Part shown: positions 9,327 to 56,491 of the stretch, piece by piece
Layout of the letters: every line of letters starts with the position of its first letter
Position numbering within the stretch: the first letter of the stretch is position 1
Assembly (NCBI GenBank): GCA_002245135.1
Contig: NGBS01000897.1
Coordinates: 1 to 64,000 of the forward strand
DNA length: 64,000 nucleotides
Direction of reading: 5' to 3'
Source: Proteromonas lacertae
Taxonomy: Eukaryota
The notes under the pieces: generated by a model
The model's input: only the letters and a program-made list of their open reading frames with translations
What the model was told of the DNA's origin: nothing
Database searches by the model: none
Position numbers and translations under genes: made by a program

Positions 9327-10208
9327 TTATTGTAATTTCAATTTTCTTTTAGCAACAATATTATTTTTAATGGTTTTTTTACAATCAAATTTCCTTATAA
9401 TTTCATATCCTATACTAGTAAGAATTTTAAACATCTTTTCTATTTCATATTTCCCTTCGTCATCTTTTTTTCCGCAATCTACTTCTATATGAATAAATTC
9501 AGCTACGTGTTTTTTGAAAAATTCTTTTCCTCCTTCAATTAGATCATATTCTCCACCTTCCACATCAATTTTTATCATAGATATTTTAGTAGGTATTAGT
9601 TTATCAAAATTATCTAGTTTTTTTACTTGTATTGATTCTATATATTCATTGTGTTGATAATATAAAGATGAATATCCCCAGTTATTTTTTTTTATACTCA
9701 TAATCTTCTCTTCATCATTCTTTCCAATTGCATAAGGATATATTGTAATATATTTAGAAAATTTGGGATTACTAAATGTAGTCAAACTAAAAGGAAATAA
9801 GTTATTAGGAAGTGGCTCAAATGCATATACTTTCACACCAGCATATGCAAAAACAAAAGAGCAAGATCCTATATTTGCTCCAAAATCTAAAAAAATCCCA
9901 TCTTTCTTTCCTGATAAATATATATCATATATATCTTGACACTCATGCCATATACCTTGTTTTCTAATCTTGTTTGATATATAATCATTACTTCTTATAA
10001 CTTGTGAAAATGTCATGTTTGTATAATTTGTTTTAACAAAAAAATATGCTTGTTCATTTAGTATAGTTGGAACAATAACATGTTTTACTGAAATAATTTT
10101 TTGGATTTTATCAGAAGTTATTAATAGCATAGTTCTCCTATTGTTGAATATAAAACACATAAGTACAATAATTAATATAAATATCACTTCATTCATTATC
10201 ATTATCAT
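9327..10208 (-). CDS. FkbM-family SAM-dependent methyltransferase, signal-anchored
   Basis: FLDFGANIGS, VYAFEP, IKIDVEGGE motifs; intact 293 aa ORF. Confidence 0.9.
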   Translation of the reverse strand: MIMIMNEVIFILIIVLMCFIFNNRRTMLLITSDKIQKIISVKHVIVPTILNEQAYFFVKTNYTNMTFSQVIRSNDYISNKIRKQGIWHECQDIYDIYLSGKKDGIFLDFGANIGSCSFVFAYAGVKVYAFEPLPNNLFPFSLTTFSNPKFSKYITIYPYAIGKNDEEKIMSIKKNNWGYSSLYYQHNEYIESIQVKKLDNFDKLIPTKISMIKIDVEGGEYDLIEGGKEFFKKHVAEFIHIEVDCGKKDDEGKYEIEKMFKILTSIGYEIIRKFDCKKTIKNNIVAKRKLKLQ

Positions 10209-10234
10209 AGATTTATAATATGAATAAATATATA

Positions 10235-12528
10235 CAGTCAGAACCCGATAGTTCGGAATGTCAAATCTGATGAAACGGACAAAAATTCTGAATTATAGTT
10301 TTTTTATAACTAACATATCAATTAACTATCTGTAATATTCCACATATATGTATTTTTAATGAATAAACAAAATAGGAAAAGTTGTATATTAAGCTTGTGC
10401 CTAATAGCTTTTAATTAGCATGTAGTTTACTTATGAAGCTCAGATTATTTTTAGCATTAAGAAATACAAAGATGCATAAGAATATTTAATTATAATAAAC
10501 GAAAACCCTCTGAAACCAGGTTCAATCGATTGAGAACGTGCTTAAATGTAATGAATTGATTATCTATAATAGATTCAAAGCCTCCTTCAAATCCACAATT
10601 AAACTTTCACATCCAGATGTTATTCTATTTTTTATAGAAGAATTTAAGATATTAACAGCTGAAGTTGTGTTTTATGAATATTTTATTGCTTTTTTCATTG
10701 ATGCAGCTTGATTATCAACTTGTATTTTATCTTTTAGAGATAGTTTTGCTAGCTGCTCATCGATTACTGTTACTTGGATTATATGTGGAAGATCTTCAGA
10801 TATATAAGGTAGAAGATCTGCAATAATGTTGGCTTTGTATAAAGTAGAACTAGACATAAATATATCTTTACAGTTTCTTTTACGTAAATCTTTAATGTTA
10901 TTAACTATATCATATAATTCTACATTCATATAATTATTTTCATCATCGCTTATTGGTTCAATCATCAAAAGTTGTCTTTTTAATTGTTGGAGTTGATTAT
11001 CAGAAGGAATTGTTGAATCTATCCAACAGTTGATAACTGTTGAACTTTTTAGGTTTTGATGGACAATAGTCATGAAGTAAATAGCGTCAGCAATAGTAGG
11101 GTTGTTGCCAATTTTTAATCCTCCTTGACCGTTGGGTATATCCTTAAAGGTTTTCTTTAGTAAGTCATAATGATCTATTGTAAATACACACTCTTTTAGT
11201 ATTAATGATTTATAATTACATTTCATAGATTGGATAATTCCTTGATCTAATGGTTGATATATGCTTGTCGTATTAGGTGGAAGGTATATTATTTCTATAT
11301 TATTGTAGGTAAATTGGATATTCTTTGGATGTGAAGAACAGTTGTCCATTATTAGCAGAATTTTTCTATTTGGAAGTTTTGAGTTTACTGTCGGTATAAA
11401 TACATTTGTCATCCAATAATTAAACACTTTCCCATCCATCCAGCCGTTGCATTGATGAATATAATATTTCTGAGACGAAATAAAGCAATTAGGTTTGACT
11501 GATTTTCCTATATACAGTAGGGGTATGTTTACTGTATTATTCATATTTACAGTAATAACAATAGACAACCTGGATTTAGAAATCTTACATCCACGTATAT
11601 GTTGTATATCTGATTCTGGAACAACACATGTATTCGGCAAAACCATGTAAAAAAGTCCAGTTTCGTCCATATTAAATACACATTAAATTGGATATTTATT
11701 CAGTTTTTTCCTTAAATCAGTAATATCAACATGAGGTGCAGATGAAGCTTCACCTTGTAATGAGGTTGAAAAGAGTCTCTTTCTATCCATAAAATTTTGA
11801 ATTAAGTGTTTACTGAGTTTTGGAACAGGAATGTAGTCTGCTACTAATTGATGTGCTTTAATTAATAGTATTGATGCATTTATAGGAATATGAGCTATTG
11901 GGTACATATTATATGCATTTATAAACCAGTTATATAGCTGATTTTCTAATTCTGGGTATTTAGACTTTCTTTCTCTTTTTTTGTAGAATTACGGCAGGAA
12001 GGATCCATATATTGTTGATTTACCTACTTCATATTCTGTACTAACGTTTTCAATGGTTGTTTCTTCGTTAAGTATATTATTTACTATTTCTGCTTTAGTA
12101 ACAAGTTTTTAGCGGTTCTTTCAAATTTTAGCTTGAGCCAAATGTTTTTTTCTTCTAATACTCTCAACTTCATCATCAAATTAACACAATTAAAATTCAT
12201 ATATGCATAACGCTAAATAGAGTGTAAAAGAAAAATACATTACAAGTTTTAATTGTCTAGTATTTTTGCCTCATAGTTGTTGTTAGTAATAAATTACGAA
12301 AGATGTATACAAATAGCATATAATAATACTTTGTATATTTATTTTTGTGAAAATAAGAACAGATCTTTCGTAAAGCTAATCTAATCTAAAACCATACTAA
12401 ATTTCTCAAGAATAATGTGTTTTGATGAATTATGAAGGTTAAATGAATTTATTATACACACAAAAAGCAAAAACTAGAAAAAATAAAAATTCTGAATTAA
12501 AAAAGTCCGAACTATCGGGTTCTGACTG
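10235..12528 (-). mobile_element. pogo/Tigger-type (Tc1/mariner superfamily) DNA transposon, 2294 bp
   Basis: Perfect 23-bp TIRs CAGTCAGAACCCGATAGTTCGGA (10235-10257) and its reverse complement (12506-12528), flanked by TA on both sides; internal DDE_1 transposase. Confidence 0.95.
10672..12100 (-). pseudogene. pogo/CENP-B-like transposase (HTH + DDE_1), disrupted
   Basis: KYPELENQLYNWF HTH segment; FNMDETGLFY, LLIMDNCSSH, LPPNTTSIYQPLDQGII; in-frame TAA at 11683-11685; 5' end degenerate and approximate. Confidence 0.85.
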
Positions 12529-12585
12529 TATATAAATATTATAAAATTAGCCAGTATATAATTTAAATATAATTATAGAGTATTA

Positions 12586-19400: not shown

Positions 19401-20438
19401 GCTGGTTAATTAAAAGGTAATGACAATACAAATAAGAAATAAGGGAAAGAATTATTAGTAGAATTATATATGAATTATTATCTTAGATTCGATATTAATA
19501 GAAGGGGTTGATTGTTACGCTTATATCTTAAATCTTAGATTTAATTATTTAAGATTTAAAATATATAAATAAACATTCTTTCTTTTGTTTTTTGGGGGTA
19601 AGAGTATTATAGACAACAGTAATTATCTATATATCTATATTAATTCATTACTTGTCGCGCGCGATAAAGAAATTTGCGCGATAAAGGATTTATAAACTTT
19701 CCTTTGAAACTAATACTATATTTACAATATATACTACTTATACTTTACATACCATATGTTATATATATGATTTATGTTAAATGAGGCGATATCAGACAAT
19801 AGAGCAGCATATATCATATTATAACATATATCAAAACTCCTTATATTAACTATGTATATTATGAAATATTATGATATAAATCAATTTTGATGTTGAGAAA
19901 ATTTAAAAAATAAGATCAAATTCCTTTTATTTTTTACCCCCATATTTTTGTTCAAAAATTAAAATTTCTTTTTATTAAGAAATATTTTAGTACTTCTAAA
20001 TATATGTGTAGATTAATATTGCTGCAACATACTTATTAGGTAAATAAAAAAGATGAGTTATAAATAGTTGTAAGTATCATTTTTACAATTCTGTAATAAT
20101 ATCATTAGAATGGTTCATTTATGAATTTTCTATTGTAATAATATCTTGTTATTCTTATTTTCCTATTCAAATGTTTAATCAAATAATAGAGGAAGTAAAA
20201 AGAAAATTTCAAATTTGCTATTTTCTTATATATTTATTATTTTCTCTATTATTTATATTACAAATAAACTTTTGTTTATGATTATGAATGTTTATAAAGT
20301 CGTTTTTTATTGTTAATTATTGTAATTTAATATATTAATTAGATATTATATGTTATTATTTTATTTTTAAACTGTAATAACAATATTGTAAAACAAAAGT
20401 GATTATGAATGAGGTAATTATTATATCGTTACTGAGAT

Positions 20439-23230
20439 TTAAAAACGATGTAAGGTATTCTTTTGGTAATTCTTGTAAAACTTAGCTTTTTCTTCCACAG
20501 TCAATTTACTCATAGCAGAGAATAAATCTTCTATAAAATAATTAATATTAAAACTCTCTATATTCTGTATTTCATCTATCCTTAGGTTTTTCAGTCTACA
20601 TCCCAAATAAAAGAGGGTGTAATACCCACAATTTACTTTATCACGATTACTTTGTTTCACATTAGTTTCCATAATTTGGTAACTTAATTCCACGTTACTC
20701 TCAAAAAATCTGTATATTCTATAGATAATATTATCTCTTGCATCATTATAATCCCCTCTATAAATGTTTAAGCTGTCATAGATATAATATTTAATATATT
20801 TATTGCTGTTATATTTCACTTCAAATAACGACCAATGTTGATAATCTTTGTCGCATACTGGGAAAAAATATATACCATCGTTCTTTATTTTACTTAATAA
20901 ACGTAATTGTTCATCACTTTTATATATATTACCTGGATCTATTACATTATCATTACACTGATTAATGAAGTGTATATAAAACACTAGATCTTCGGATTTT
21001 AATCTCTCTTTTAATAATAGATGATTAACTATAATATTAAATTGTCTTAAGAAACAGTTCTTTTGCTTACCTTTTAGTGATATTGTATTATAATTGTATG
21101 GATTTATAATTAATCTAACAAAATTTAATGTATTTTCTTCATTGCGTGAATAGAATAGAGAATCACCATCATCATCATCATGTATATTGACGTAAAAACA
21201 GGACAACTTCAGTCTGTATGATTTATATTCTAATAGTTTAGAGATATATTCTCTTAGCAAATCGCTCATTAGAATAACATCTAACTCCAATACTTCAATA
21301 TTGTTGTAATCAGAATTCATAATCATAAATGTCACAGTAGCAGCAATATCTGTGGCTTCTGGAAAATTGCTCCTAACATTTATTATATTTATTTCATATT
21401 TACTTAGATTTGATATATATGAGGATATATATTTAAGATCTGTATTATAGTCATATGTATTAATTGAATCATATATTTTAATCATCCCTTTATCCTTTTC
21501 TATCATAATTAAATAGCATCGATGTGATTTAATTAATATGCTCATACTTTTATTATTATATAATAACATATTGTTACTTAATAGATTAATGTCATTAAAA
21601 TCATATAATTGAAGTATATACCATATCTGATATATATTTAACTCCTTTTTTCCTATTTTATCTCTTACTTTTATCACATTTTCTAATTGTTCTTCAGTTA
21701 AAGTATCTTTACCATCATAGTCAGAAGTAATTTTTCCAAATATGCTATAAACTGCATTTTTAGAAGGATGTCTAATGATATCTGATAGAATTTTTTGGTA
21801 TGTATCAGTTTTTCTTTTCTTTTTCTGAGGATTGACCTATTTAATAAAATAATAATAATACTAATTGCATATCCATTTTTCTTTTGAGTTTTTCTTGAAG
21901 ATCAGTTGATATAGGAATGACTTCCACTGCCGATGAATTAGTCAATCTTATTTCGTTATCTTTGTTACTATGTTAATTATTAATATACATATCTATACAC
22001 TGCATATAATGAATCATTATTTTTGTTCTTTTTGATTATTCTGAACTCATTTTTATCTTTTTGATTTTTTATTTTCTTAGTAAAAACAATTGCATTGCCA
22101 TGCTGGGGGTTTGATACTTTTTCACTCAACTTTTTAATCGAATTCATTACCATCTTACTATTTTTTTTCTCTATTCTAATATTAACAGATTGTTTGATAT
22201 TATCTATTACTGACTTATTCCTATTAATATCTTTATTTATTTTTTCATCATTTATTTCTTCATTGTCTATGTTATAACCATAATCTACATTATTATTACT
22301 TATATTGTAAAATAATTTTGGGTTTTCTTTTTGTAGTTCTTCTACATCCATAAAAAAAAGACTTCTTGGCTTGCAATGTGTTGTTGAAGAAATCGAAGTA
22401 TTCATATCTTCAATTATATTTTCTATAAATTCTGTCCATTCATGACCCTCATTTTCAGATAAGTAACCATCTACTAAGCGTTCTATAACTTGATTATAAC
22501 GTTCAACCTTACCATTCGTTTGAGGATGATAAGGCGAGCTTGTTATCTTTTTGGTATGATAATCTGCCATTAATTCATTCAATATATTGTTGACAAACTC
22601 AGGTCCGTTATCAGATTGAATAATTGATGGGGCGCCAAAAATTCGTATATAACTTTTAATATTTTCTGCTGTTTCTTTGGCACTTTTTGTCTTTTGACAA
22701 TAAATCATAATAAAACTACTATAATGATCAATAATAGATAAAAGAAATTTTTCATTTGAATGATATTTGCTCATATTTATTAAATCAATCAGTATCCTTT
22801 CTCTTGGTGCATGAGATATGATTGGTTGCATTGGATTACTACGACTAATCTTCTTAATTTTGTGACAAACAGCGCATGCATTTAAATAGATTCTAATCAT
22901 GTCTCTTGTTATACCAAAATATTTTGCATCACAATTAATATATTGCATCATGAAACGCTCTCTTCTATGCCCATGAGATCTATGAATATCATCCAATATA
23001 TCAAAACTTTCTTCCAATTTCACTACCAACTTATCTTCGAAGTAGAGTTTATTATTCTCGACTTTATACTTTTTAAGTTTGTAATAATTAATGTTATTCA
23101 AATATTTGTCATACTTTTTCTGATCAAATGTCCATGAGTTTGTACCACTTAAGCATAATTTATCTATTTCTTCGTAATAGTGTTTGACATGATCAGCTCT
23201 AAGCAATGTATCAAGATCTTCATCAGATGA
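20439..23230 (-). CDS. Integrase (HHCC + rve DDE) fused to tandem Ulp1/C48-like peptidase domains via two short introns
   Basis: IHRSHGH..CAVC, IDLINM, QSDNGPEF, PYHPQTNGKVERYN; removing introns 21968-21998 and 21837-21861 joins ORF 21980-23206 in frame to ORF 20439-21677, which has QHWSLF, YDSL, KQSNRDKVNCGYY. 5' exon(s) upstream of 23230 unresolved. Confidence 0.85.
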
Positions 23231-23610
23231 CCTAATTATAAATATAGAATAATAAGTAAATAAAAGATATATAGGCTAATAAAGATTAGAACAATTTTGT
23301 AGATTTCAATCACATTTTCTTGCATAACCTAAATAATGAGTAAATTGTTATTTTACCAATAAAATTACTCAAATTGTCTGATAATATTCTATCTTCACAT
23401 GGTTTTGTTTCTGAATCTCTCATGTTCATATAATAACATAAATCTAGGAATGATAATTGCAACTATCAGTTTGATGGATTATATGGTGTAGTTTTCTTCA
23501 TTTAACGTGAATAGACTAACGCCTTAAACAGCATAACCCCACTAGAGTAATTACAGAATATATTGCCATATTTGATGTAAATTCCTTTCAGTTATACAAA
23601 TATATCAAAT

Positions 23611-23617
<7 letters not shown>

Positions 23618-23646
<29 letters not shown>
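23618..23646. repeat. (TA)n microsatellite inside the transposon
   Basis: Directly visible run of TA units. Confidence 0.9.
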
Positions 23647-23649
<3 letters not shown>

Positions 23650-24402
23650 TTACATTTTAAAAGATATAAATTTGAAAAGTTTGATATATGCTTGACATCA
23701 TATTTATATTTTTCTTTAATGCTTAATTACATAATAGACTAAAATATATTATATCTCTTTATTATAGTATATTCAATTTTTCTATATTTTTTCCCTGGTA
23801 ATATACGCTCATTGCGCTTAGATTTCAAGATACTTGATATTTACGCTTGATATAAGACCTAAACACAAAACAATCACATCTACATTTTAATAATATTCTT
23901 ATATTACAATAATCTAAACATATACTTTTAAAATTACAAAAAAAGAAAAGAGCTTGAGCAAAAATTTGAAAATTGAAAAAATAATTCAAAGAGTATAATT
24001 CTTAATTCCTGTATAACTGATACATTTTTTCTATGCATCATCTAATGAAATTAATATTATATTTAATATATAAGTCAATTTTACTATTTAATAATAGTGT
24101 TTTCTTTTCATATTATGACAGTTTTTATATGTCATAAAAAGTAGTTTATATAGCAAACTAACAATATATAAACGTAAAACAAAGGACATATATTACGATT
24201 ATAATGCAACTTTTTCATAAAAGTTTATAACTCCTTTATCGCGCAGATTTCTTTATCGCGCGCGACATTACTCACATAACATTTATACGATCTATTTTAT
24301 AGGCTAAGAATCAGAAAAACTTTGGACTATAATCATAAAAACGTTTACTTAGAAAGAATTAATGCTATGAACACAGCAATATGAGCTTCTAATACCTTCA
24401 GC

Positions 24403-25631: not shown

Positions 25632-26452
25632 ATGGTAATTTTGACATGTCACAATATTAAAATGTCAAAACTCCCTAAATATTTCGTTTATATTCCAATA
25701 ATTTCTGGAATTATATGTACTGTTACTATAATAACTTGTTACATAATAAGTAGATCTCTTCATCATTATCCTGAGTGGATGTGGTTACCAGTAATATCTT
25801 TGATGGGTTTTACAATGCCAGAAAGAGTAATTTATGCTATTGGATTTACTAGTGCTGGTTTGGGCTATTTAGTAATAGCTTATCAGTATATTCCTGGAAT
25901 GAGAAGATTATATATGTATAATGTAAATTAGATAATATGTATAGGACTAATGTATTGGGAAGAACCTATGCTGTGTATGTCGCAAGCATATTAACTTACA
26001 TTTGTGTAATTGGTTTGATAATTCAAGCTTGCATACCTTTACAACATGATATATTAGATGATAATTGTAAAATTACCTTCCAAAGCCTTATACATCAATC
26101 TTCAGCAGGAATTTTATTTTTTTGTGCTTTAATTCATGGAATAATTACAATATATTTGTTTTTAACTCAAACATATTATAAATGTAAATTATCTGTGATA
26201 TTGAAAATAATTCCTACCACAGTAATAGGATTTTGTATAATTGGTTCAATGTTATTACATCCAACCGTAACGAATCAGAAAACTGCAAGTATTTTAGGTG
26301 CTGTATTACAATGGTCACTTGTATTTTCAATGATCGTTCTATTTGGATCTTATTCAGTTGATTTTAATTATTTATGTAATGACTATGTGGAAGTGGATGA
26401 ACAGAGGAATATCAACCCTGATGAAGAACATAAATCATTATTATCTAAATAG
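25632..26452 (+). CDS. Frag1/DRAM/Sfk1 (TMEM150-like) multi-pass membrane protein, one short intron near 25917-25944
   Basis: WLPVISLMG...PERVIY, IHQSSAGILF, LQWSLV..IVLFGSY..DF; about six TM segments. Start may be 25662. Confidence 0.8.
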
Positions 26453-34603: not shown

Positions 34604-37600
34604 ATGGATAAGTATATTTTAATCATTCACAATATTAATAGAAAAAATATAAAGTTTGATTTATGCAAGAAAAATGCTTTAGAAAAGCTTCAAAAGTGTG
34701 ATAAGTCTCCCAAAGGAAGTCTGGATGAGCCAATTGAAGAATTAGTTTATTTAATAAATAAAGAAAGTGATTATGTAACAACTAGTAGTTGTAGTGGTAG
34801 AATTGCGTTATTTGTTAGTGAAAACAAAGTATGAGAATATAATGTATATTATGAAAATATAGAAAGGAGGTAAATGGCTATTATCAAACCACAGTCACAT
34901 TAGTTATGAAGAAATGAGAAAATGCCTGAATGAAGTAAATTCATTAAAAACAGGTGAAATATTATTATTAAAAGTGGAACCAATGATACTTCATGTATAT
35001 TTATAGTTAATATATAATTATTTATAGATTCAGTGTAGATCTATAGAAACAGCCAAAGAATTATTACAAATAGGTATAGAAAGTGGATTTAGAGAAAGTG
35101 GAATAATTCCATTGAATAAAATAATGTTAGCAATACGAACAACATCAAATTCATTAGAAATTCCTTTACTAACAAAAGAAGAAGACGAAAATAATGTAAA
35201 TGAAATGTTTAGTGATAAATATATAAAATATTTAGTAAATTACTGTAATGAGTTATTTGATAGAAATAGTAAAAGAATTGAAATTTTGTCAAAGAAAATA
35301 ACGCAATATTTTTCTAAAGACAAAATCTTTTATAATAATAAACTAAAGATTGAGCAAATTAAAAATATAAAAATTGATAAAAATAAAAAAGAGATAAAAA
35401 TAGATATAATTCAAAGAGATAATTCTATTATCAAATCAATCACTTGGTCATTCCATAGTGAAATTAAATAACAATAATATTATAATATTTGGAGGATATG
35501 GAAAGAATGAAATAAATGAAAGTGAAAAAAGATTAAATGATTTAATACTCTTTAAAAGAGAAACAAATGAAATAATTAAAATGAATTGTATTAATACAAA
35601 GGAATCAGAATTACCTATTGCTAGAATGTACCATCAATCATTATTATATAATAACAAATATTTCATATCATTTGGAGGAAGAACTAATCCAAATGAATGT
35701 TTAAATGATTTAATAATATATGATATTGAGTTAAATAAATGGTTTATTAATAAAGAAAGTGATGGCAATAAATATCCATCTCCTAGATGGAATTATTCAT
35801 TTGTTTTAACAAATAGTAATAGAATAATATTATATGGAGGTAGAGATTCAAATAAAGTATATAATGATATTTGGGAATTGAAAATAAGTGAAACGAATAA
35901 TGAAACGAACAAATTTTTAATAGAATGGAAATGTTTAAGTGATGAAAATCGTAGGAGTATAATTCCAAGGTTTTTACATTGTGGAATTGATATAGGAAAT
36001 GATAATATATTATTTATTGGAGGATTAAGTGATTTAATATTTCCTATGAAGAAATCACCTCCAATAATGATTTATGACTTGAAAAATAATATCATCAAAA
36101 TGGGAAATATAAGTAATAATTTTTGTTGTTGTGTTTATGGAAGTAAAATGTTGAAAATTAAAAATAATAATTTCTTAATAGTTGGTGGAATGAGTTATAA
36201 TAATAATAATCAATCAAATGGTATTCAATTATTAACATTAAGTAATGAAAATGATGAATTATCAATAAATGTGAAATATTTGAGTGATATAAGTGAATAT
36301 AACCCATCAAATCAATCAGTTTTAGTATATATATATATATATAATATTTATTAAATAGATAGATAATGAATTGATGATAATTGGTGGAGGTGGACCACTT
36401 GCTTGGACTTGTTATTATGCAAAATCACTAAGTTATCAATTGAATATAAACAGTGAAAGTATAAAAGAAGAAAAAATAGAAAATATAAAAGAAGAAATTG
36501 AAATTGAAACAACTGAAGTAATACCAGTAATTGAAGTACCAAGTAATGTAGTAAAGAAATTTAAAAATGAATTGACTGAATTGAAATTGATTAATAATAA
36601 ATACAAGATAATGAAAAGTGATAATAAGATGTGTTTTATTCCATTAAATATCTCTTCAAAAGATGAAACAATTGAAATAAAAGATGATAATGAAAAATAT
36701 AATGAATTGAAAGACTATTTTAAAGAACATTCTATAAGATATAGTGATAAATTGAAATCATCTCATATTTCAGTTTATTCATTGTTAATTAGTAATATTA
36801 GAAATTGGTATGACAGTTATAATAGTGAAACAAAATCAAAAATATCATTTGATGAATTAATCTCAAATTTTCCTACCAAAATTGAAAAAGTTGGTGATAT
36901 AATTGTTATACCAAATAATTACTTGACTTTAGATATATGGAAAGAATGTAAAGAATTATACAAATGGATAAGTGAATTATATAACACTGAAAGAATAGCA
37001 GCTTACTCGTCAATAGATAGTGGAATTAAACGAGAAAGTCACACAAAAATTATTTATCCATTGAAAGATGATGTAAATGGAAATACATGTGTAAAACAAG
37101 TATATAGAAATTTTTAATTAATATTTATTTATAGAATGGTATTTATTATTATTTTGATATAACTAAAACTATGTTTTCCAGTGGAAATGTAACTGAAAGA
37201 GTAAGAATGGGTAAATTGAAATGTGATAGTGAAATAGTATTTGATCTATATTGCGTATAGTTAATATAAATTCTATATTATGAATAGGGAATAGGTTATT
37301 TTACATTGCCAATATTGAAATATGGAAATCCAAATCACTTATATGCCTGTGATATAAATCCAAATTCCATAGAAGCGATAAAATACAATATGGAAATGAA
37401 TCATATTGATGAATCTAAATATACTATCTTGTTAGGAGATAATAAAGATACTACAGCAATGTATGAAGATATAGCTGATAGAATATTACTTGGATTACTT
37501 CCTTCGTCAGAAAATGGATGGGATATAGCAATTAGATTGTTGAAAAGAGAAGGAGGGATGTTGCATATACATGAGAATATAAAAGATAAAGGATATGAAG

Positions 37601-38490: not shown

Positions 38491-39741
38491 TTAATCATAG
38501 GATCTAAGCATTATTATTTTATTACTAAATGATGGATAAATATTTATATCTGTTTTTACTAATTCTACTTTTCTTTGGATTTCTTTCTCATCTTCATTAA
38601 TTTCACGATCTAACATCAACGAACTACTGCAATATCTTAAATGTTGACCAGATATTCTTCTATAATGTCTAATATAAGCTATTTCTATAGGTACATTGCA
38701 GCTGTTAAATCCAGGATAGTATAAGTTGACATTATGAATCCATAAGTTACTCACTAAATGGCTTTCATAAATTACATATTTTTGAATCATTTTCTGTTTT
38801 AATTCACAATATTCTCGATGAACAAATATGTCTGTATCACTTACATCATTTATATATCCATCGAATCCTTTGAATATTTCACGATGATATAATCTTTGAC
38901 GAAAATAGAACACAGAACATTCTTTATGTTGATTTATATAATGTTGTAAATCATTTGGAGATTGTTTATGTTCTATCCATAAGATTTCATCTAAATCTAT
39001 CGGTATTATATGTTTACTAAGTCTTCGATATCTATAGAAACAATCATTCAACTTCCATAATTGACCATAGAACATATTATATACTATAGTCAGTTCAATT
39101 GTTTTATTCCAAGTTATCACATCAATTATTCCTTTTTTAGAATAGTAATCTAATACAAATTCCATTTCTTTACTACAAGATGTCTTATATATCACTATGT
39201 GATCTACTCCAAAATGAATATTTGATTCAATTACTTGAATGAAATGATTTACAGCAGTATAATTCTTTAATTTACATATACATACTGTGTTGTTGTATAT
39301 TGGTTTTATATTTTCAGAATAATTGATTATAGAAATCTTAGAATCATTGAATCTTACATACTGAGGAATTTTTGATGTGGTATTATCACGTACAATTAAA
39401 TATCCATATAACTTGGTGTATTTCGGATTATAAACCTTCGATATCCAAGCTTCTGTCTCACTATCATTGTATATTAGTGATAGTTTTGGTATAGGTACCT
39501 TTTTGTAATCACCTATTGTAAATACTCTTACTGCTTTTATTCTTTCATCATAAAAAGCATTCAAAAGATAACAGCTTTTAGAGTATTCTATACTGCTGAT
39601 CTGGCTGCTTACTTTGGAATAGAAATTTGTTTCAGAACCTAACTTATGTTTCATATTGTTACTTAGCTGGAAATCGATAATATTAAAGAATAAAAATCCA
39701 ATAGATACAACACAGCAGATGAGTATGACATTTCTTTTCAT
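38491..39741 (-). CDS. GT92/DUF23 glycosyltransferase-like, copy A
   Basis: TM anchor; AFYDER, TVCI, HFGVDHIVIY, VLDYY..KG, YGQLWKLNDCFYRYR, IDLDEI, HYR. Confidence 0.85.
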   Translation of the reverse strand: MKRNVILICCVVSIGFLFFNIIDFQLSNNMKHKLGSETNFYSKVSSQISSIEYSKSCYLLNAFYDERIKAVRVFTIGDYKKVPIPKLSLIYNDSETEAWISKVYNPKYTKLYGYLIVRDNTTSKIPQYVRFNDSKISIINYSENIKPIYNNTVCICKLKNYTAVNHFIQVIESNIHFGVDHIVIYKTSCSKEMEFVLDYYSKKGIIDVITWNKTIELTIVYNMFYGQLWKLNDCFYRYRRLSKHIIPIDLDEILWIEHKQSPNDLQHYINQHKECSVFYFRQRLYHREIFKGFDGYINDVSDTDIFVHREYCELKQKMIQKYVIYESHLVSNLWIHNVNLYYPGFNSCNVPIEIAYIRHYRRISGQHLRYCSSSLMLDREINEDEKEIQRKVELVKTDINIYPSFSNKIIMLRSYD

Positions 39742-39938
39742 TTATGAAACGAATATATTTTTGAGAATTTCATTATAATCTCATTACAAACTATAATATC
39801 TACTCATATATAGTTATAACGATGCAATCATGAATAATATTATATTTTATTTAATAATTTTCATGGATTAAGGATATAAAATAATTAACATTTAAATATG
39901 AAAAGAATAAAAACTATTTATCTTTAATTTAAAACTAC

Positions 39939-41198
39939 CTATTTCACAGTATAATTACCAAGTATAATTATATTATCATTACTAAATGATGGATAAATAT
40001 TTATATCTGTTTTTACTAATTCTACTTTTCTTTGGATTTCTTTCTCATCTTCATTAATTTCACGATCTAACATCAACGAACTACTGCAATATCTTAAATG
40101 TTGACCAGATATTCTTCTATAATGTCTAATATAAGCTATTTCTATAGGTACATTACATTTTTTATATCCTTTAAAATATACTAATACAAAATGTATCTCT
40201 AAATGAGAAATTGTGGATGTGTTATAGATTATATATTTTTGTATTAATTTTGGTTTTAATTCACAATATTCTCGATGAACAAATATGTCTGTATCAGAAA
40301 TATTATTAACGAATCTATCATACATATTCAATATCTCACGATGATATAATCTTTGACGAAAATAGAACACAGAACATTCTTTATGTTGATTTATATAATG
40401 TTGTAAATCATTTGGAGATTGTTTATGTTCTATCCATAAGATTTCATCTAAATCTATCGGTATTATATGTTTACTAAGTCTTCGATATCTATAGAAACAA
40501 TCATTCAACTTCCATAATTGACCAAACGAATATTGATAAATGACATTCAATTCTATAGTTGTATTCCAAGTTATCACATCAATTATTCCTTTTTTAGAAT
40601 AGTAATCTAATACAAATTCCATTTCTTTACTACAAGACGTCTTATATATCACTATGTGATCTACTCCAAAATGAATATTTGCTTCAATTACTTGAATGAA
40701 ATGATTTACAGCAGTATAATTCTTCATCTTATCAACACATACAGTATTATGATAAACTAGTTGTTTATTTTTTGGATAATAAATTATAGGTATTTTATAA
40801 TCGTAATATCTTACATATTGAGGAATTTTTGATGTGGTATTATCACGCAGTAGATAATATCCAAATGATTTGGTATATGGGTTGGGACTAACATTTTCAA
40901 CTTGTGCTTCTATATCTCTGTCACTGTATACAAGTGACAGTTTTGGTATAGGAATTTTATTTATCATTCCAATAGTAAAAATTTTCACAGCTTCTAGTCG
41001 TTCATCGTAAAATGCATCCAAAAAATATGAATTGTTATAAAATTCTATTGTATTAACTTGGTTATTTATTTTCGAAAATGATGTTAATTCTACATCTTGT
41101 GTGAATAATAATTTGTAATTATATTGAAATGTAAATATATTGAATATTAGAAATCCAATAGAAATAATACAACAGATGAGTATTACAGTTCTTTTCAT
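39939..41198 (-). CDS. GT92/DUF23 glycosyltransferase-like, copy B (tandem duplicate)
   Basis: Same motifs; long blocks identical to copy A; ~20 nt upstream of ATG also shared. Confidence 0.85.
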   Translation of the reverse strand: MKRTVILICCIISIGFLIFNIFTFQYNYKLLFTQDVELTSFSKINNQVNTIEFYNNSYFLDAFYDERLEAVKIFTIGMINKIPIPKLSLVYSDRDIEAQVENVSPNPYTKSFGYYLLRDNTTSKIPQYVRYYDYKIPIIYYPKNKQLVYHNTVCVDKMKNYTAVNHFIQVIEANIHFGVDHIVIYKTSCSKEMEFVLDYYSKKGIIDVITWNTTIELNVIYQYSFGQLWKLNDCFYRYRRLSKHIIPIDLDEILWIEHKQSPNDLQHYINQHKECSVFYFRQRLYHREILNMYDRFVNNISDTDIFVHREYCELKPKLIQKYIIYNTSTISHLEIHFVLVYFKGYKKCNVPIEIAYIRHYRRISGQHLRYCSSSLMLDREINEDEKEIQRKVELVKTDINIYPSFSNDNIIILGNYTVK

Positions 41199-52527: not shown

Positions 52528-55500
52528 TTATTTAAATAGATCATCAAATGCACTGAGATCATTTGCAGGATTAGATTTTTCACCATTTGGTTTAATTAAA
52601 CAACTAAACGGATCATCCTCATTAGATTCACTATTATTCTTATTCTTCTTTGATTCTTTTTCTAATTCACTAAAATCAATTTTCTCTTTTTTATTCATTC
52701 TTTTCGATATTCTTTTTTCTTTATCTGTATTTATTTCGTTAAAAATATTCATTTTATCACCAATTAATATTTCTTGTAGTGCATCTACTAACAAATCATC
52801 ACAACTTTTCTTCGATTTCGTCTTTCTAATTGTTGAAGGACTTGATGGATTTGATGAAAATGATGGGCAAGAATTTGAATTATGTGCTTCTATTGATAAA
52901 GTAGGTGGTTGCCTTAAAGATAGATGTTTTTTATTTATTCTTTCACTGTTTTTGTGACTACCATTTTCTATTTGTATTTCATTGAGTAATTCTTCAAAAC
53001 ATTTTTTACATACAGTTTTCTATTTCATATAAATAAATAATAATAATAATAATAATAATATATATATATATATATATATACAGCAATTGAATCATTTGAA
53101 TATGGAACAGCAGCACTATAATTTGTACAATTTTTACAAAAAATATTTCCACAATTCAAACAATGAATTTTCTTATTAGACCATGAAAATACACTATGAC
53201 ATAATTCACATACACTAACAACCTCTTCCAACTGTAGAATTGGTGCAAAATATATATTTGTAGAATCAATATTATTTTCATTCCTCTGTTGATAAATATA
53301 TTTTCTTATTTCTTCAATCCAACTGATTTTCTCTTCTAAACTATTAGCAGATACATAAAATGAATTATCTTTTGATTTTATTATAAACAAATTCGTTCTG
53401 TCTCTGAATGAATAATTACATGAATCTACATCACAATCTTTTAAATATAATTTCTTTGGTTGAATTACTTTACCTAAATACGGTTTACCATAGATTAAAA
53501 TATCACTAAACAAGTAATACTTATATTCTACTAATTTAGATGGTGTAAACGTAACTAATGTTCCCTATAAAAAAAGAAAATAATAAAAAAACAATTATAT
53601 ATATATATATATACAGCTTTTATAAAGTCTCTATTACCATCATCTAATTTTATTCCACTATTAAACAATTCATTTTTTATTTCATCTATCAATTTATGTG
53701 TTAATCTTCTAGACATTTTTGAATTGTTTACTAAGTCCCCAATTTCTTGTTTTGCTTTTCTCAATTGTTCCTTTTCATCAGATGTATTGGAACTTTCATC
53801 GTCTATAATGATTTTGGAGATGATTTCTTGATAATCAGTTAATCTTTCTAGTGGTTTATTGATTAATAATTCAAAATCTATTTCACAGAGAGGATGGTTC
53901 TTAATAGATTCATAGAAATTGATATTTTCATCACAATTAAGAATGGTTTTTAATCCAGGTAATGTTGACATATACATACTATAAACTCTTAATAATGGAA
54001 TATAGGAGAGAAATACTGGACCAACATTCACCTATATATATATAGGAGGGAAAAAAGAAGATATTAAAGAAGAAGATAATGAATAAAATATAGTGAAAAA
54101 AAATAAGAAATATATATATATATATTAATAAATATACATTATCATATGAATTCTTACACAATTCATTCAAATCATCAATCAATTTATTACTCATTACTAT
54201 TAATTCATCAATACATTCCATAAACACAGCAATATCAGGATTATTTAAACCTTTTACTTTGACATATTTACATTTTGACATGGTTCGAAGCTTGACAAAT
54301 GTTTCATTTACTTCTAAATCTAAATGATGTAATGGTTCAACGAATATAGTGTTTAACAATTCTAATTGATAAAATTTTATAAAAATACTTAAATTCTTTA
54401 CATATTCTATTTCAGTTTTGATTAAATCCCTCAGATTTTTCCCTTTACCAGTTATATTAATTGTATTATCAAATTGTTTCATATTTGTTTTACTATATAA
54501 ATATTCATCTTCTAATCGATGAATTGATTGCATTCGTGGTAAATCAATATTCTTACGATTATAAATGGTTCGAAATATCTCTTTAACTACAATATTGATA
54601 TAACTACATTCTAAATTCAATATATTCATCTACAAATATAATTAAAGAAATATATATAAAAACAGAATTAAAAAGAATAGAAAAAGATATATATTTTTCA
54701 ATTAATTCATATGGTTCAACTGTTTTCTGAAATATAATTGGAACATTCAATCGTGGAAATAATAATACAGTACAACATTGTACTTTGGTTGGATGTCCCT
54801 GATTTACTGTAAAAAGTTCTACAATTTGTTCACTGTAGTATTTACTATTATAATTACCGTTGTTACAATCTTCTAACTTCATTTTACCTATTCCAATTAA
54901 TTTATCACTTCCTATTTTTTGATGATTGTATAATTCTATTATTAAAATATAGTCGTTTAACTCATTCAATTCTATTTCATCTTTTATGCTGATTTTATTC
55001 CATTCATTTTCTTTGTCATTTTCTTTATTTAAAGTTGTTCCTATATCGCACATACCATTGTTAAATGATAAATATAAATTGTTATGTTTTTCTTTCATTT
55101 CATTTGTTATATTTTCGATTTTTGCTGAAGTGATTTCTAATTCAAATGAATTTTCTTTTTCTTCCATTTCAATAGACATACATGGATTACACAATTTGAT
55201 TGGTTCTTTTGAATTGATTGATTTAACTAAGACTTTATCCTTTGATAAACACTTATTACAAACTGCTTTACAACAACGACTATATTTTTAGAAATATAAA
55301 TAACTATACTAACATAAATTCTTCTTGTTAATCAAAGAGAATGATTTTCCACATAATAAACACCTTACATACTTCGATATATCAACATCTTCTGGGTTTG
55401 GATAGTTCAAGCTATCAGTTTTGTTAAATTTCTTTGATGTTTCTTCCATTAGTTTCCTCCAAGTATCTAATTCTTCATTTGATTCGAATATTAGTGTAAA

Positions 55501-56491
55501 TGACTTTTCCAGTGTATTTAAATCAAATGTCAAATCTTTTATGTTTGAAATATACATTCCATCAATTGACAGTTGTCTATGATAATAATAACCAGCTCCA
55601 CTAACTTCTGCATAAATTATACAATCGTTGAATAAGAAAAATTCATATTTTGTTTTATTACCTCTTCTATTGAATTTGTAGATCGAGCCTTGCTTGATCA
55701 AATTTCGATTTTTATGAACAATATCGTTGTAATTAGAGAATCTATAACATTAAATTAATTATTTTATTCATATATACTTTCTCTGCAATTCATTCAACAA
55801 GTTTACATTCTCAGTCTCTCGAATTACCTCATTTATATGATTACAAAGGTTTATAATCATCCCTTTAGCATTTTCAAATGTTCCATAGCATTTTTCATCA
55901 CTTTTTATATACTTTATTAGACTAGTTAGTAGTAATTGATATCTTGGTATTCTTTGAGTTGGTGATATTAAATAGCTTTCCATTGCTTGTGGTGTCTTTG
56001 GATTGGTCGTATAGTTATGTATTTCTTTTATAAATGTTGGATTATTCATATAATTTCGTATAAGATACTGTGAAGATGATTGATTTGCAGCATAGTAGCC
56101 ATATATTTTGAATAGTGGTACATAAGAGAGAAATAATTTTCCTAGTTCTTCTTCTTTTTCTTCTGAAATCTAACAAAACACACTAATTTACTAAAATATA
56201 TACTATTTTGTGTAATTCTTGTAGAAATGAGTTATTAATCACAGCTATTTGTTGAAAATTGCCAAATAACCTAGCTATCATCGGATTATTCATAAATTCT
56301 TCTTTTATAGGCGAATCCATCATTTCAAAACCTTTAATATACACATCAACAAAATTAATCAGTTTTTCAACATATCCTTCCTCTGTAGTTATAATTTCAT
56401 TGATAACCTATATATAGATAATATAAAACAATTTATAGAGAGAGATAGAGAAATAAATATATACTTCTGACTTTTTAGTAAAGCTACTCAT
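52528..56491 (-). CDS. FGD-like RhoGEF: DH-PH-FYVE-like, C2, DH-PH-FYVE-like; multi-exon
   Basis: VINEIITTEEGYVEKL, YLISPTQRIPRYQLLL (DH1); FFLFNDCIIY (PH1); CLLCGKSFSLINKK..C (FYVE1); ELYNHQKIGSDKLIG (C2); LIKTEIEYVKNL, KPLERL (DH2); LFSDILIY (PH2); CELC...HCLNCGNIFCKNC (FYVE2). Confidence 0.85.

Follow-up and report, generated by a model that had tools for sequence, protein, structure and literature searches.

An autonomous-looking DNA transposon with Ginger2/Tdd-type features in Proteromonas lacertae, predicted to encode a spliced integrase–Ulp1-like protease fusion

Organization and boundaries of the element

A stretch of 64,000 nucleotides (nt) of Proteromonas lacertae DNA (contig NGBS01000897.1, positions 1 to 64,000 of the forward strand, hereafter the window) carries a DNA transposon of 4,615 bp at 19653-24267, whose long frames lie on the minus strand (Table 1). 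Read in the coding direction, these frames specify a retroviral-type integrase, a predicted short linking exon and a C-terminal module of two domains, the second of which is predicted to be a protease of clan CE, to which the Ulp1/SENP proteases belong. We consider it likely that the locus holds an autonomous-looking DNA transposon of the Ginger superfamily, with a single gene predicted to be spliced into one integrase–protease fusion.

The first letters of the element are TGTCG and the last are CGACA, both read directly. Its left end, directly after TTACT, reads TGTCGCGCGCG... and its right end, directly before the TTACT at 24268-24272, reads ...CGCGCGCGACA. Aligned as terminal inverted repeats (TIRs), the two ends match at 46 of 48 positions, and beyond these 48 bp a weaker complementarity reaches 80 nt at 80%. 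The formal direct repeat that brackets the element is 7 nt long (CATTACT, 19646-52 and 24266-72) because CA, by chance, also closes the left flank; from the symmetry of its inverted repeats the element is placed at 19653-24267, with a target-site duplication (TSD) of 5 bp. An earlier annotation of this DNA made from its letters, here called the sequence-only reading, had reported TGT..ACA ends, 48-bp TIRs and an exact 5-bp TSD, TTACT, and all three are borne out by direct reading and by alignment. In the 64-kb window the first 21 nt of the element have two matches, both being the element ends (0.00 expected), and a GC-rich 11-mer, GCGCGATAAAG, occurs four times against 0.06 expected, with two copies per end lying 17 nt apart. 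In a window of 23% GC, these 11-mers are obvious candidates for transposase-binding sites. The 3′ non-coding part also contains a plus-strand open reading frame (ORF) of 74 aa and low complexity (20057-20281), and a (TA)n microsatellite lies within the 5′ non-coding part at 23616-23646.

Table 1. Features of the transposon, in the order of their positions in the window
Feature	Position	Strand	Remarks
Left TSD, TTACT	19648-19652		Same letters as 24268-24272, read directly
Left TIR	19653-19700	+	Begins TGTCG; GCGCGATAAAG at 19659-19669 and 19676-19686
Non-coding 3′ part	19701-20438	-	Downstream of the stop codon; no minus-strand ORF of at least 50 aa
Predicted exon 3	20439-21836	-	465 codons plus stop (20439-20441), open under the standard code
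Second domain, CE-clan (Ulp1/SENP-like), predicted	20517-21050	-	Catalytic set complete; from motifs, feature search and fold search
Catalytic residues of the second domain	His334 20835-37, Asp354 20775-77, Gln395 20652-54, Cys403 20628-30	-	
First domain, weakly CE-like, probable pseudo-protease	21192-21674	-	Ile/Ala at the catalytic Cys position (..PEATDIAATV..)
Basic motif PQKKKRK	21810-21830	-	Opens exon 3, ahead of that frame's first Met
Predicted intron 2	21837-21861	-	25 nt, GTATTA..AATAG
Predicted exon 2	21862-21967	-	106 nt, 36 residues including the exon 1-exon 2 junction codon
Predicted intron 1	21968-21998	-	31 nt, GTATAG..CATAG
Integrase frame	21980-23275	-	431 codons, open under the standard code
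Integrase exon, predicted	21999-23275	-	Candidate 5′ acceptor 23232/23233
SH3-like tail, HGNAIV..	from 22102	-	Within the integrase exon
Catalytic core D164/D222/E258	22502-22786	-	D(57)D(35)E spacing
HHCC zinc finger	22865-22984	-	Within the integrase exon
5′ part, presumed promoter and candidate first exon	23276-24219	-	Candidate ATGs 23429, 23439, 23325
Right TIR	24220-24267	-	Ends CGACA; GCGCGATAAAG at 24234-24244 and 24251-24261
Right TSD, TTACT	24268-24272		Read directly

The integrase and its relatives

The upstream frame encodes an integrase of the HHCC-DDE retroviral type, as had been proposed from the letters: it matches Pfam rve with E=3.4e-12 (47 bits, above the cut-off of 32.6), and its catalytic core has DD35E spacing. 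The zinc-binding domain H2C2 gives a weak Pfam match in the window copy (E=0.073) and scores above the cut-off in the relative P0004 (26.7 vs 25.5 bits). A profile of the integrase family matches the PFV integrase with E=2.8e-17 and the Ty3 integrase region with E=2.2e-16. No reverse transcriptase (RT) or RNase H frame was found inside the element, in that Pfam returned integrase families alone for the two long frames of the minus strand, eight other ORFs of at least 50 aa being short and outside the Pfam scan.

Two motifs that separate the Ginger groups were looked for in the protein. Judged by eye against the definition in an excerpt of PMC2836005 (Bao, Kapitonov, Jurka 2010), the YPYY motif (Y/F-P-Y/F-Y/F) is absent, as the window copy has zero prolines in the ~40-45 residues before HRSHGH; the aligned stretch ahead of the zinc finger is also proline-free in P0004, P0005 and P0007, and P0006 has a single P two residues ahead of the first His. 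No G-P-Y/F tripeptide was found after the DDE core in the window copy or in its aligned relatives. A conserved integrase tail, HG[ND].[IV]V..K..(K/E)[LF].I[IV], is present at the C-terminal side of the core, and this tail may be a degenerate equivalent of GPY/F.

Database searches returned 62 relatives of the integrase. One of them, P0003, is 98% identical; P0004-P0007, found in Logan contigs only, are 41-48% identical by BLASTP and 45-49% in the alignment; and the remaining relatives stand at ~30% identity or below. In a quick tree of 54 rows, from which ten of the weakest or shortest hits had been dropped (P0052, P0054, P0056, P0057, P0059, P0061-P0064 and non-integrase rows), the family forms a group of six rows with support 100. 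It sits within a 13-row clade (98 in the Shimodaira–Hasegawa-like approximate likelihood ratio test, SH-aLRT) whose members lack chromodomain, RT and RNase H, and this clade is separate from 41 mostly chromodomain/RT Gypsy-type rows. The placement is consistent with a Ginger-type lineage and, given the long branches and the quick method, is no proof of one. When the integrase alignment was searched against metagenome contigs, 80 loci were retrieved and none belonged to the family, their identity being at most 35% over matches of at least ~90 residues and higher on short core segments alone.

The nearest integrase cluster outside the family, the 90% cluster of P0008, includes P0204, a protein of 650 residues from ENA metagenome contigs. 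P0204 carries an N-terminal OTU domain followed by H2C2 and rve, so protease–integrase fusions occur in a neighbouring cluster as well, the order of protease and integrase there being opposite to that in the window element.

The C-terminal module

In peptidases of family C48, the catalytic His, Asp, Gln (oxyanion) and Cys follow one another in that order. The last domain of the exon-3 frame has the same order, seen already in the sequence-only reading, with the four residues at H334, D354, Q395 and C403. The search within a near length range yielded just two relatives of this frame, P0001 at 97% identity and P0002 at 36% by BLASTP (38% in the alignment), and P0002 shares its two-part layout. 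All four residues are kept in P0002 (4/4), and identity within windows of ±5 residues around them is 29/43, compared with 38% overall. A CE motif pattern occurs in 2 of 100,000 shuffles.

Two kinds of comparison beyond plain sequence search point in the same direction. In the language-model features of the Atlas, the second domain reaches 0.95 with 183 shared features and adjoins clusters bearing Peptidase_C48, a value that shuffled proteins reach about 1 time in 100; its ten best family-bearing matches all fall in one clan, which includes Peptidase_C48, a 10/10 result that a third of shuffled proteins also give. In the AlphaFold models, which were built on 3-5 aligned sequences, the catalytic His and Asp fall on predicted strands, with His opening its strand and Cys opening a helix (pLDDT, the predicted local distance difference test, 39.7/48.3). 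A Foldseek search with the domain-2 model (pLDDT 48.3) gave SENP5 as the best match (E=6.6e-4), and 41 of the 41 matches listed are SENP, Ulp1, NEDP1/Den1, XopD, NopD, SseL, ChlaDub, OtDUB, SnCE1, poxvirus core protease, PopP2 or RavZ, of which we take the last two to stand in or near clan CE. With the whole-frame model, the first 13 rows are the same CE families (E=0.014-0.12), and unrelated folds come lower.

Several results weigh against this assignment. The sequence-only reading had tied its Ulp1 label to a match with Pfam Peptidase_C48 (PF02902), and no such match was obtained for the whole frame, for either domain or for P0002, even at E<=10. Searches of the protease domain in PHROGs and NCBIfam returned nothing useful. 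Sequence matches to CE proteases in the PDB are sub-threshold (ChlaDub2 E=0.07-0.15, XopD 1.4-2, ASFV S273R 0.52), an unrelated ribosomal S6 protein outranks them in one PDB search, and P0002 has no PDB match. Both AlphaFold models are of low confidence (pLDDT 39.7 and 48.3), and the Foldseek superpositions are poor, with a template modelling (TM) score of about 0.4 and a root mean square deviation (rmsd) of about 10 Å. No relatives were added by tblastn of the protease domain against phages, which gave no match, or by a search of the C-terminal alignment against metagenome, genome and viral contigs.

These results, together with a first domain that clearly lacks a nucleophile, are what would be expected if the C-terminal region were no active protease and instead were a binding module derived from the CE fold, a pseudo-enzyme or an unrelated fold with a look-alike order of motifs. 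We regard this as improbable: none of His, Asp, Gln and Cys is lost at an overall identity of 38%, conservation is highest in the blocks around them, and both the Atlas and Foldseek lead to Ulp1/SENP/CE proteases. The second domain is thus probably a CE-clan, Ulp1/SENP-like protease too divergent for Pfam.

The first domain reads SHRCYL...IYDS...PEATDIAATV, compared with QHWSL...IYDS...Q..VNCGYY in the second domain, so that His and Asp are present without Cys. In P0002 the first domain lacks His, Asp and Cys, yet its EATDI block is kept. Its Atlas value (0.92, 156 shared features) leads to the same clusters and is below the level typical of true family members, and hhalign of the first against the second domain found no similarity (probability 0.1). 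The tail had earlier been described as Ulp1-Ulp1. The last domain is indeed most likely of the Ulp1/SENP type of clan CE, and the first is without the catalytic Cys, so the tandem can be no more than a protease preceded by a pseudo-protease.

Predicted splicing of the integrase and protease frames

Deleting both predicted introns yields one frame of 926 codons, and two alternative acceptors for intron 2, at 21825 and 21819, keep the frame likewise. Host introns in the same window, inferred from adjacent frames, have the form GTA..TAG and measure 23-62 nt (e.g. 8987-8965, 2022-1995, 25916-25944 and 36325-36358). The proposal that mini-introns fuse the two frames therefore stands in so far as introns of 31 and 25 nt are host-style and join the exons in frame; splicing itself is a prediction.

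Comparative evidence favours a single spliced fusion. The exon-2 peptide aligns with the tail of P0004 at a local score of 61, against 22.5 ± 4.0 for shuffled sequences, none of 2000 of which scored as high, and in P0004 (41% identical) this peptide and the integrase share one ORF. Its conservation was assessed on P0004, the ORFs of P0005 and P0006 stopping earlier; these two end within a few codons of the site homologous to the intron-1 donor, as expected if a stop-containing intron follows at that point. In the exon-3 frame, the first Met is residue 90, and residues 10-89 are identical to P0002 at 28 of 80 positions, compared with 170 of 451 overall. Conserved as they are ahead of the first Met, residues 10-89 could be translated only if the frame is joined to an upstream exon. 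The basic motif PQKKKRK at the start of this exon is reminiscent of a nuclear-localisation signal of the SV40 type.

Other observations tell against the fusion as drawn. Stop-free GT..AG joins are plentiful when introns of 15-200 nt are allowed, 7 with one intron and 101 with two, and they include joins that bypass exon 2 with a single intron of 152-164 nt; in-frame joinability alone is therefore weak evidence. By BLASTP, the match of exon 2 to P0004 is not significant (E=0.45). At the other end of the gene, the integrase frame has no in-frame ATG ahead of the zinc finger, and the candidate leader exons starting at the ATGs 23429, 23439 and 23325 need introns of 17-181 nt, none of them clearly host-like.

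The abundance of open joins would also suit a transposon with two separate genes, in which the integrase stops at 21980 and the protease is translated, unspliced, from a start of its own; P0002, whose called start is an M just nine residues inside the homologous frame, seems to offer such a start. We give this arrangement a low probability. That M stems from a prokaryote-style gene call, which also accepts TTG and GTG, and the start M of P0003 aligns to a TTG of the window copy and is therefore a gene-caller artefact. In the window copy itself, 80 residues no less conserved than the rest precede the first Met of the downstream frame, and the 106 nt that separate the two frames are conserved as protein and belong to one ORF with the integrase in P0004.

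Integrity and age of the element

The sequence-only reading had counted roughly 900 aa without a disabling stop and called the element apparently intact. The open coding length is confirmed (926 codons), whereas "intact" is unproven at the 5′ end, where no ATG precedes the zinc finger. The missing start, with no host-style 5′ intron solution found, is one reason to consider that the element is an inactive relic which has kept its ends and frames, lost its start codon or promoter and no longer moves autonomously. A second reason comes from the A8/T8 homopolymer at 22352-22359 in the integrase exon, where the window copy reads SLFFMDVEEL and P0003 reads SLFLWM-stop. P0003, another copy or assembly, is one base shorter in this homopolymer and is frameshifted or mis-assembled there, so that at least one other copy or assembly carries a frameshift. 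Against a relic stand 926 stop-free codons in DNA of ~25% GC, the exact TSD, the intact TIR cores and 11-mer repeats, and the room that is left for an upstream mini-exon; on balance we hold decay of this kind to be rather unlikely. Recent activity would be consistent with the open frames, the exact TSD and the undamaged end motifs, which do not demonstrate it.

GC content at third codon positions (GC3) is 0.22 in the coding part of the element and 0.15-0.22 in sampled host genes, and this closeness argues for a long residence in the host lineage. The near-identical relatives P0001 and P0003 (97-98%, Logan) are no closer to the window copy than the 96% Logan match is to a host MAP kinase, which otherwise finds at most 47% identity among scattered eukaryotes. 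P0001 and P0003 may accordingly come from a sister strain rather than being recent copies.

Comparison with known transposons and proteases

Published elements are described here as in excerpts of PMC2836005 and PMC10045372 (Kojima and Bao 2023). Ginger1 elements of Hydra (e.g. Ginger1-4 to -10_HM) have one transposase gene that joins a Gypsy-like HHCC-DDE integrase to a C-terminal Ulp1 or OTU domain; they are 2.6-7 kb long and have 0-4 GT-AG introns, TGTNR termini, TIRs of ~40-270 bp, a 4-bp TSD of CCGG/CCGT, YPYY and GPY/F motifs and matches to pfam02902 (PMC2836005). Ginger2/Tdd elements have HHCC and DDE without YPYY or GPY/F, and TDD-4/5 of Dictyostelium discoideum make a 5-bp TSD (PMC2836005). 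Ginger1 TSDs are given as 4 bp long and those of Ginger2 as 4 or 5 bp (PMC10045372).

The window element shows the features of the Ginger superfamily, namely HHCC and DDE, TIRs rather than long terminal repeats (LTRs), TGTNR termini and a TSD of 4-5 bp. With Ginger1 it shares the HHCC-DDE integrase and TGTNR ends, and its TIRs and overall length fall within the Ginger1 ranges; its predicted GT-AG introns and putative C-terminal Ulp1-like tail would be further likenesses, whereas its TSD is 5 bp and AT-rich, it has neither YPYY nor G-P-Y/F, and its protease domain falls below the Pfam C48 threshold and is preceded by a cysteine-less CE-like domain. The likeness to TDD-4 and TDD-5 extends to HHCC and DDE without YPYY or GPY/F, TGTNR ends, a 5-bp TSD, AT-rich targets and a protist host; their TIRs, however, are 260-297 bp long, compared with 48 bp (80 bp with the weaker extension) in the window element. 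For Ginger2, the excerpt of PMC2836005 mentions no protease domain, and literature searches on Ginger elements and on transposases with Ulp1/SUMO proteases turned up no description of a Ginger2/Tdd element with an Ulp1 domain. The Ginger2/Tdd-like label that had been attached to the element agrees with the definition in the PMC2836005 excerpt in termini, TSD length and motif content. By these described features, rather than by reference sequences, the element fits Ginger2/Tdd with a protease tail in the style of Ginger1. An integrase transposase with an Ulp1 tail is already known from Ginger1 (PMC2836005), and what the excerpted descriptions of Ginger1 and TDD set apart is a new, divergent family within the known Ginger superfamily.

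Proteases of ubiquitin-like modifiers are also carried by transposons of other kinds, such as the Ulp1-domain Mutator-like elements and OTU-carrying Helitrons cited in the Discussion of PMC2836005. The window element is like them in carrying a putative protease of this kind and differs in that their transposase or replication enzyme is another one and their protease is often a separate ORF. Set beside Ulp1/SENP and NEDP1 themselves (MEROPS C48, clan CE), the second domain shares the His-Asp-Gln-Cys order and finds these proteins as its top fold-search matches; it departs from them in having no Pfam match, a slightly longer spacing (His-Asp 20, Gln-Cys 8) and a predicted fusion to an integrase.

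A proposed mechanism and its significance

Among cut-and-paste elements, integrase-type DNA transposons stand closest to LTR retrotransposons and retroviruses. In the mechanism we propose, the integrase would bind the repeated 11-mers, expose CA-3′OH ends and insert the element ends across a 5-bp stagger. Splicing out the mini-introns of host style, 31 and 25 nt long, would link it, via the 36-residue exon and PQKKKRK, to the tandem module, presumably a cysteine-less CE-like domain followed by an Ulp1/SENP-like (clan CE) protease with a complete catalytic set. Where transposition takes place, the protease might then strip proteins of the host or the transposon of SUMO or of another ubiquitin-like modifier. 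A role as an anti-silencing deSUMOylase, as suggested in the sequence-only reading, is speculation.

A broader interpretation is possible, and we advance it tentatively, as doubtful in its full extent: the element would represent an uncatalogued protist lineage of Ginger2/Tdd type, diversified into at least five integrase subfamilies, in which a pseudo-protease binding SUMO or a ubiquitin-like modifier and an active CE protease are obligatorily spliced to the integrase, and in which the capture of modifier proteases is recurrent and functionally required. If this were true, there would be a pattern of capture, with OTU at the N-terminus in the nearest outgroup and Ulp1 at the C-terminus in Ginger1 and the window element, and not a peculiarity of Hydra.

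Why unrelated transposon superfamilies carry proteases of ubiquitin-like modifiers is a question that has stood since at least 2010, as the excerpted discussion of PMC2836005 attests. The window element bears on it in that the protease accompanies an integrase outside animals, in an element that is Tdd-like and not Ginger1-like; if confirmed, this would speak for a functional connection of the protease with integrase-mediated transposition. It also provides a compact test case of 4.6 kb, with clear ends, a candidate transposase-binding 11-mer and a putative protease with an identifiable nucleophile. As the architecture itself has already been described, the gain is incremental, and the finding is interesting rather than surprising.

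Host setting and other features of the window

The window has ~23% GC throughout and is dense in long frames, of which 51 with at least 130 codons stay open in the standard code; a protein kinase, Myb, CNOT11 and several glycosyltransferases are among those scanned. The ciliate code 6 was considered and rejected, as the long frames are open under the standard code and code 6 merely extends them into their flanks. The host is thus a standard-code, very AT-rich eukaryote. For trichostome ciliates, weighed as a possible host group, PMC11316547 reports the standard code and a GC content of about 26%, but introns of about 100 bp. No tRNA or Rfam match was found in the window. Six or seven consecutive minus-strand frames at 52530-56169 apparently form one host gene, with introns of ~34-62 nt of the form GTAT..ATAG, some consisting of (TA)n or (TTA)n repeats, and give a handy local sample of how host introns look.

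Positions 10223-12540 hold another DNA transposon, which is pogo/Tc5-like and apparently intact. Its inverted repeats of 35 nt (10223-10257 and 12506-12540) are 94% complementary, and it contains minus-strand frames at 11683-11988 and 10672-11682, the latter matching DDE_1 (PF03184) with E=1.5e-31. This element adjoins or lies inside the upstream end of the frame 9327-10292. Elsewhere in the window, two neighbouring minus-strand GT92 glycosyltransferase frames of 416 and 419 codons lie at 38491-41198, both with matches at ~1e-28.

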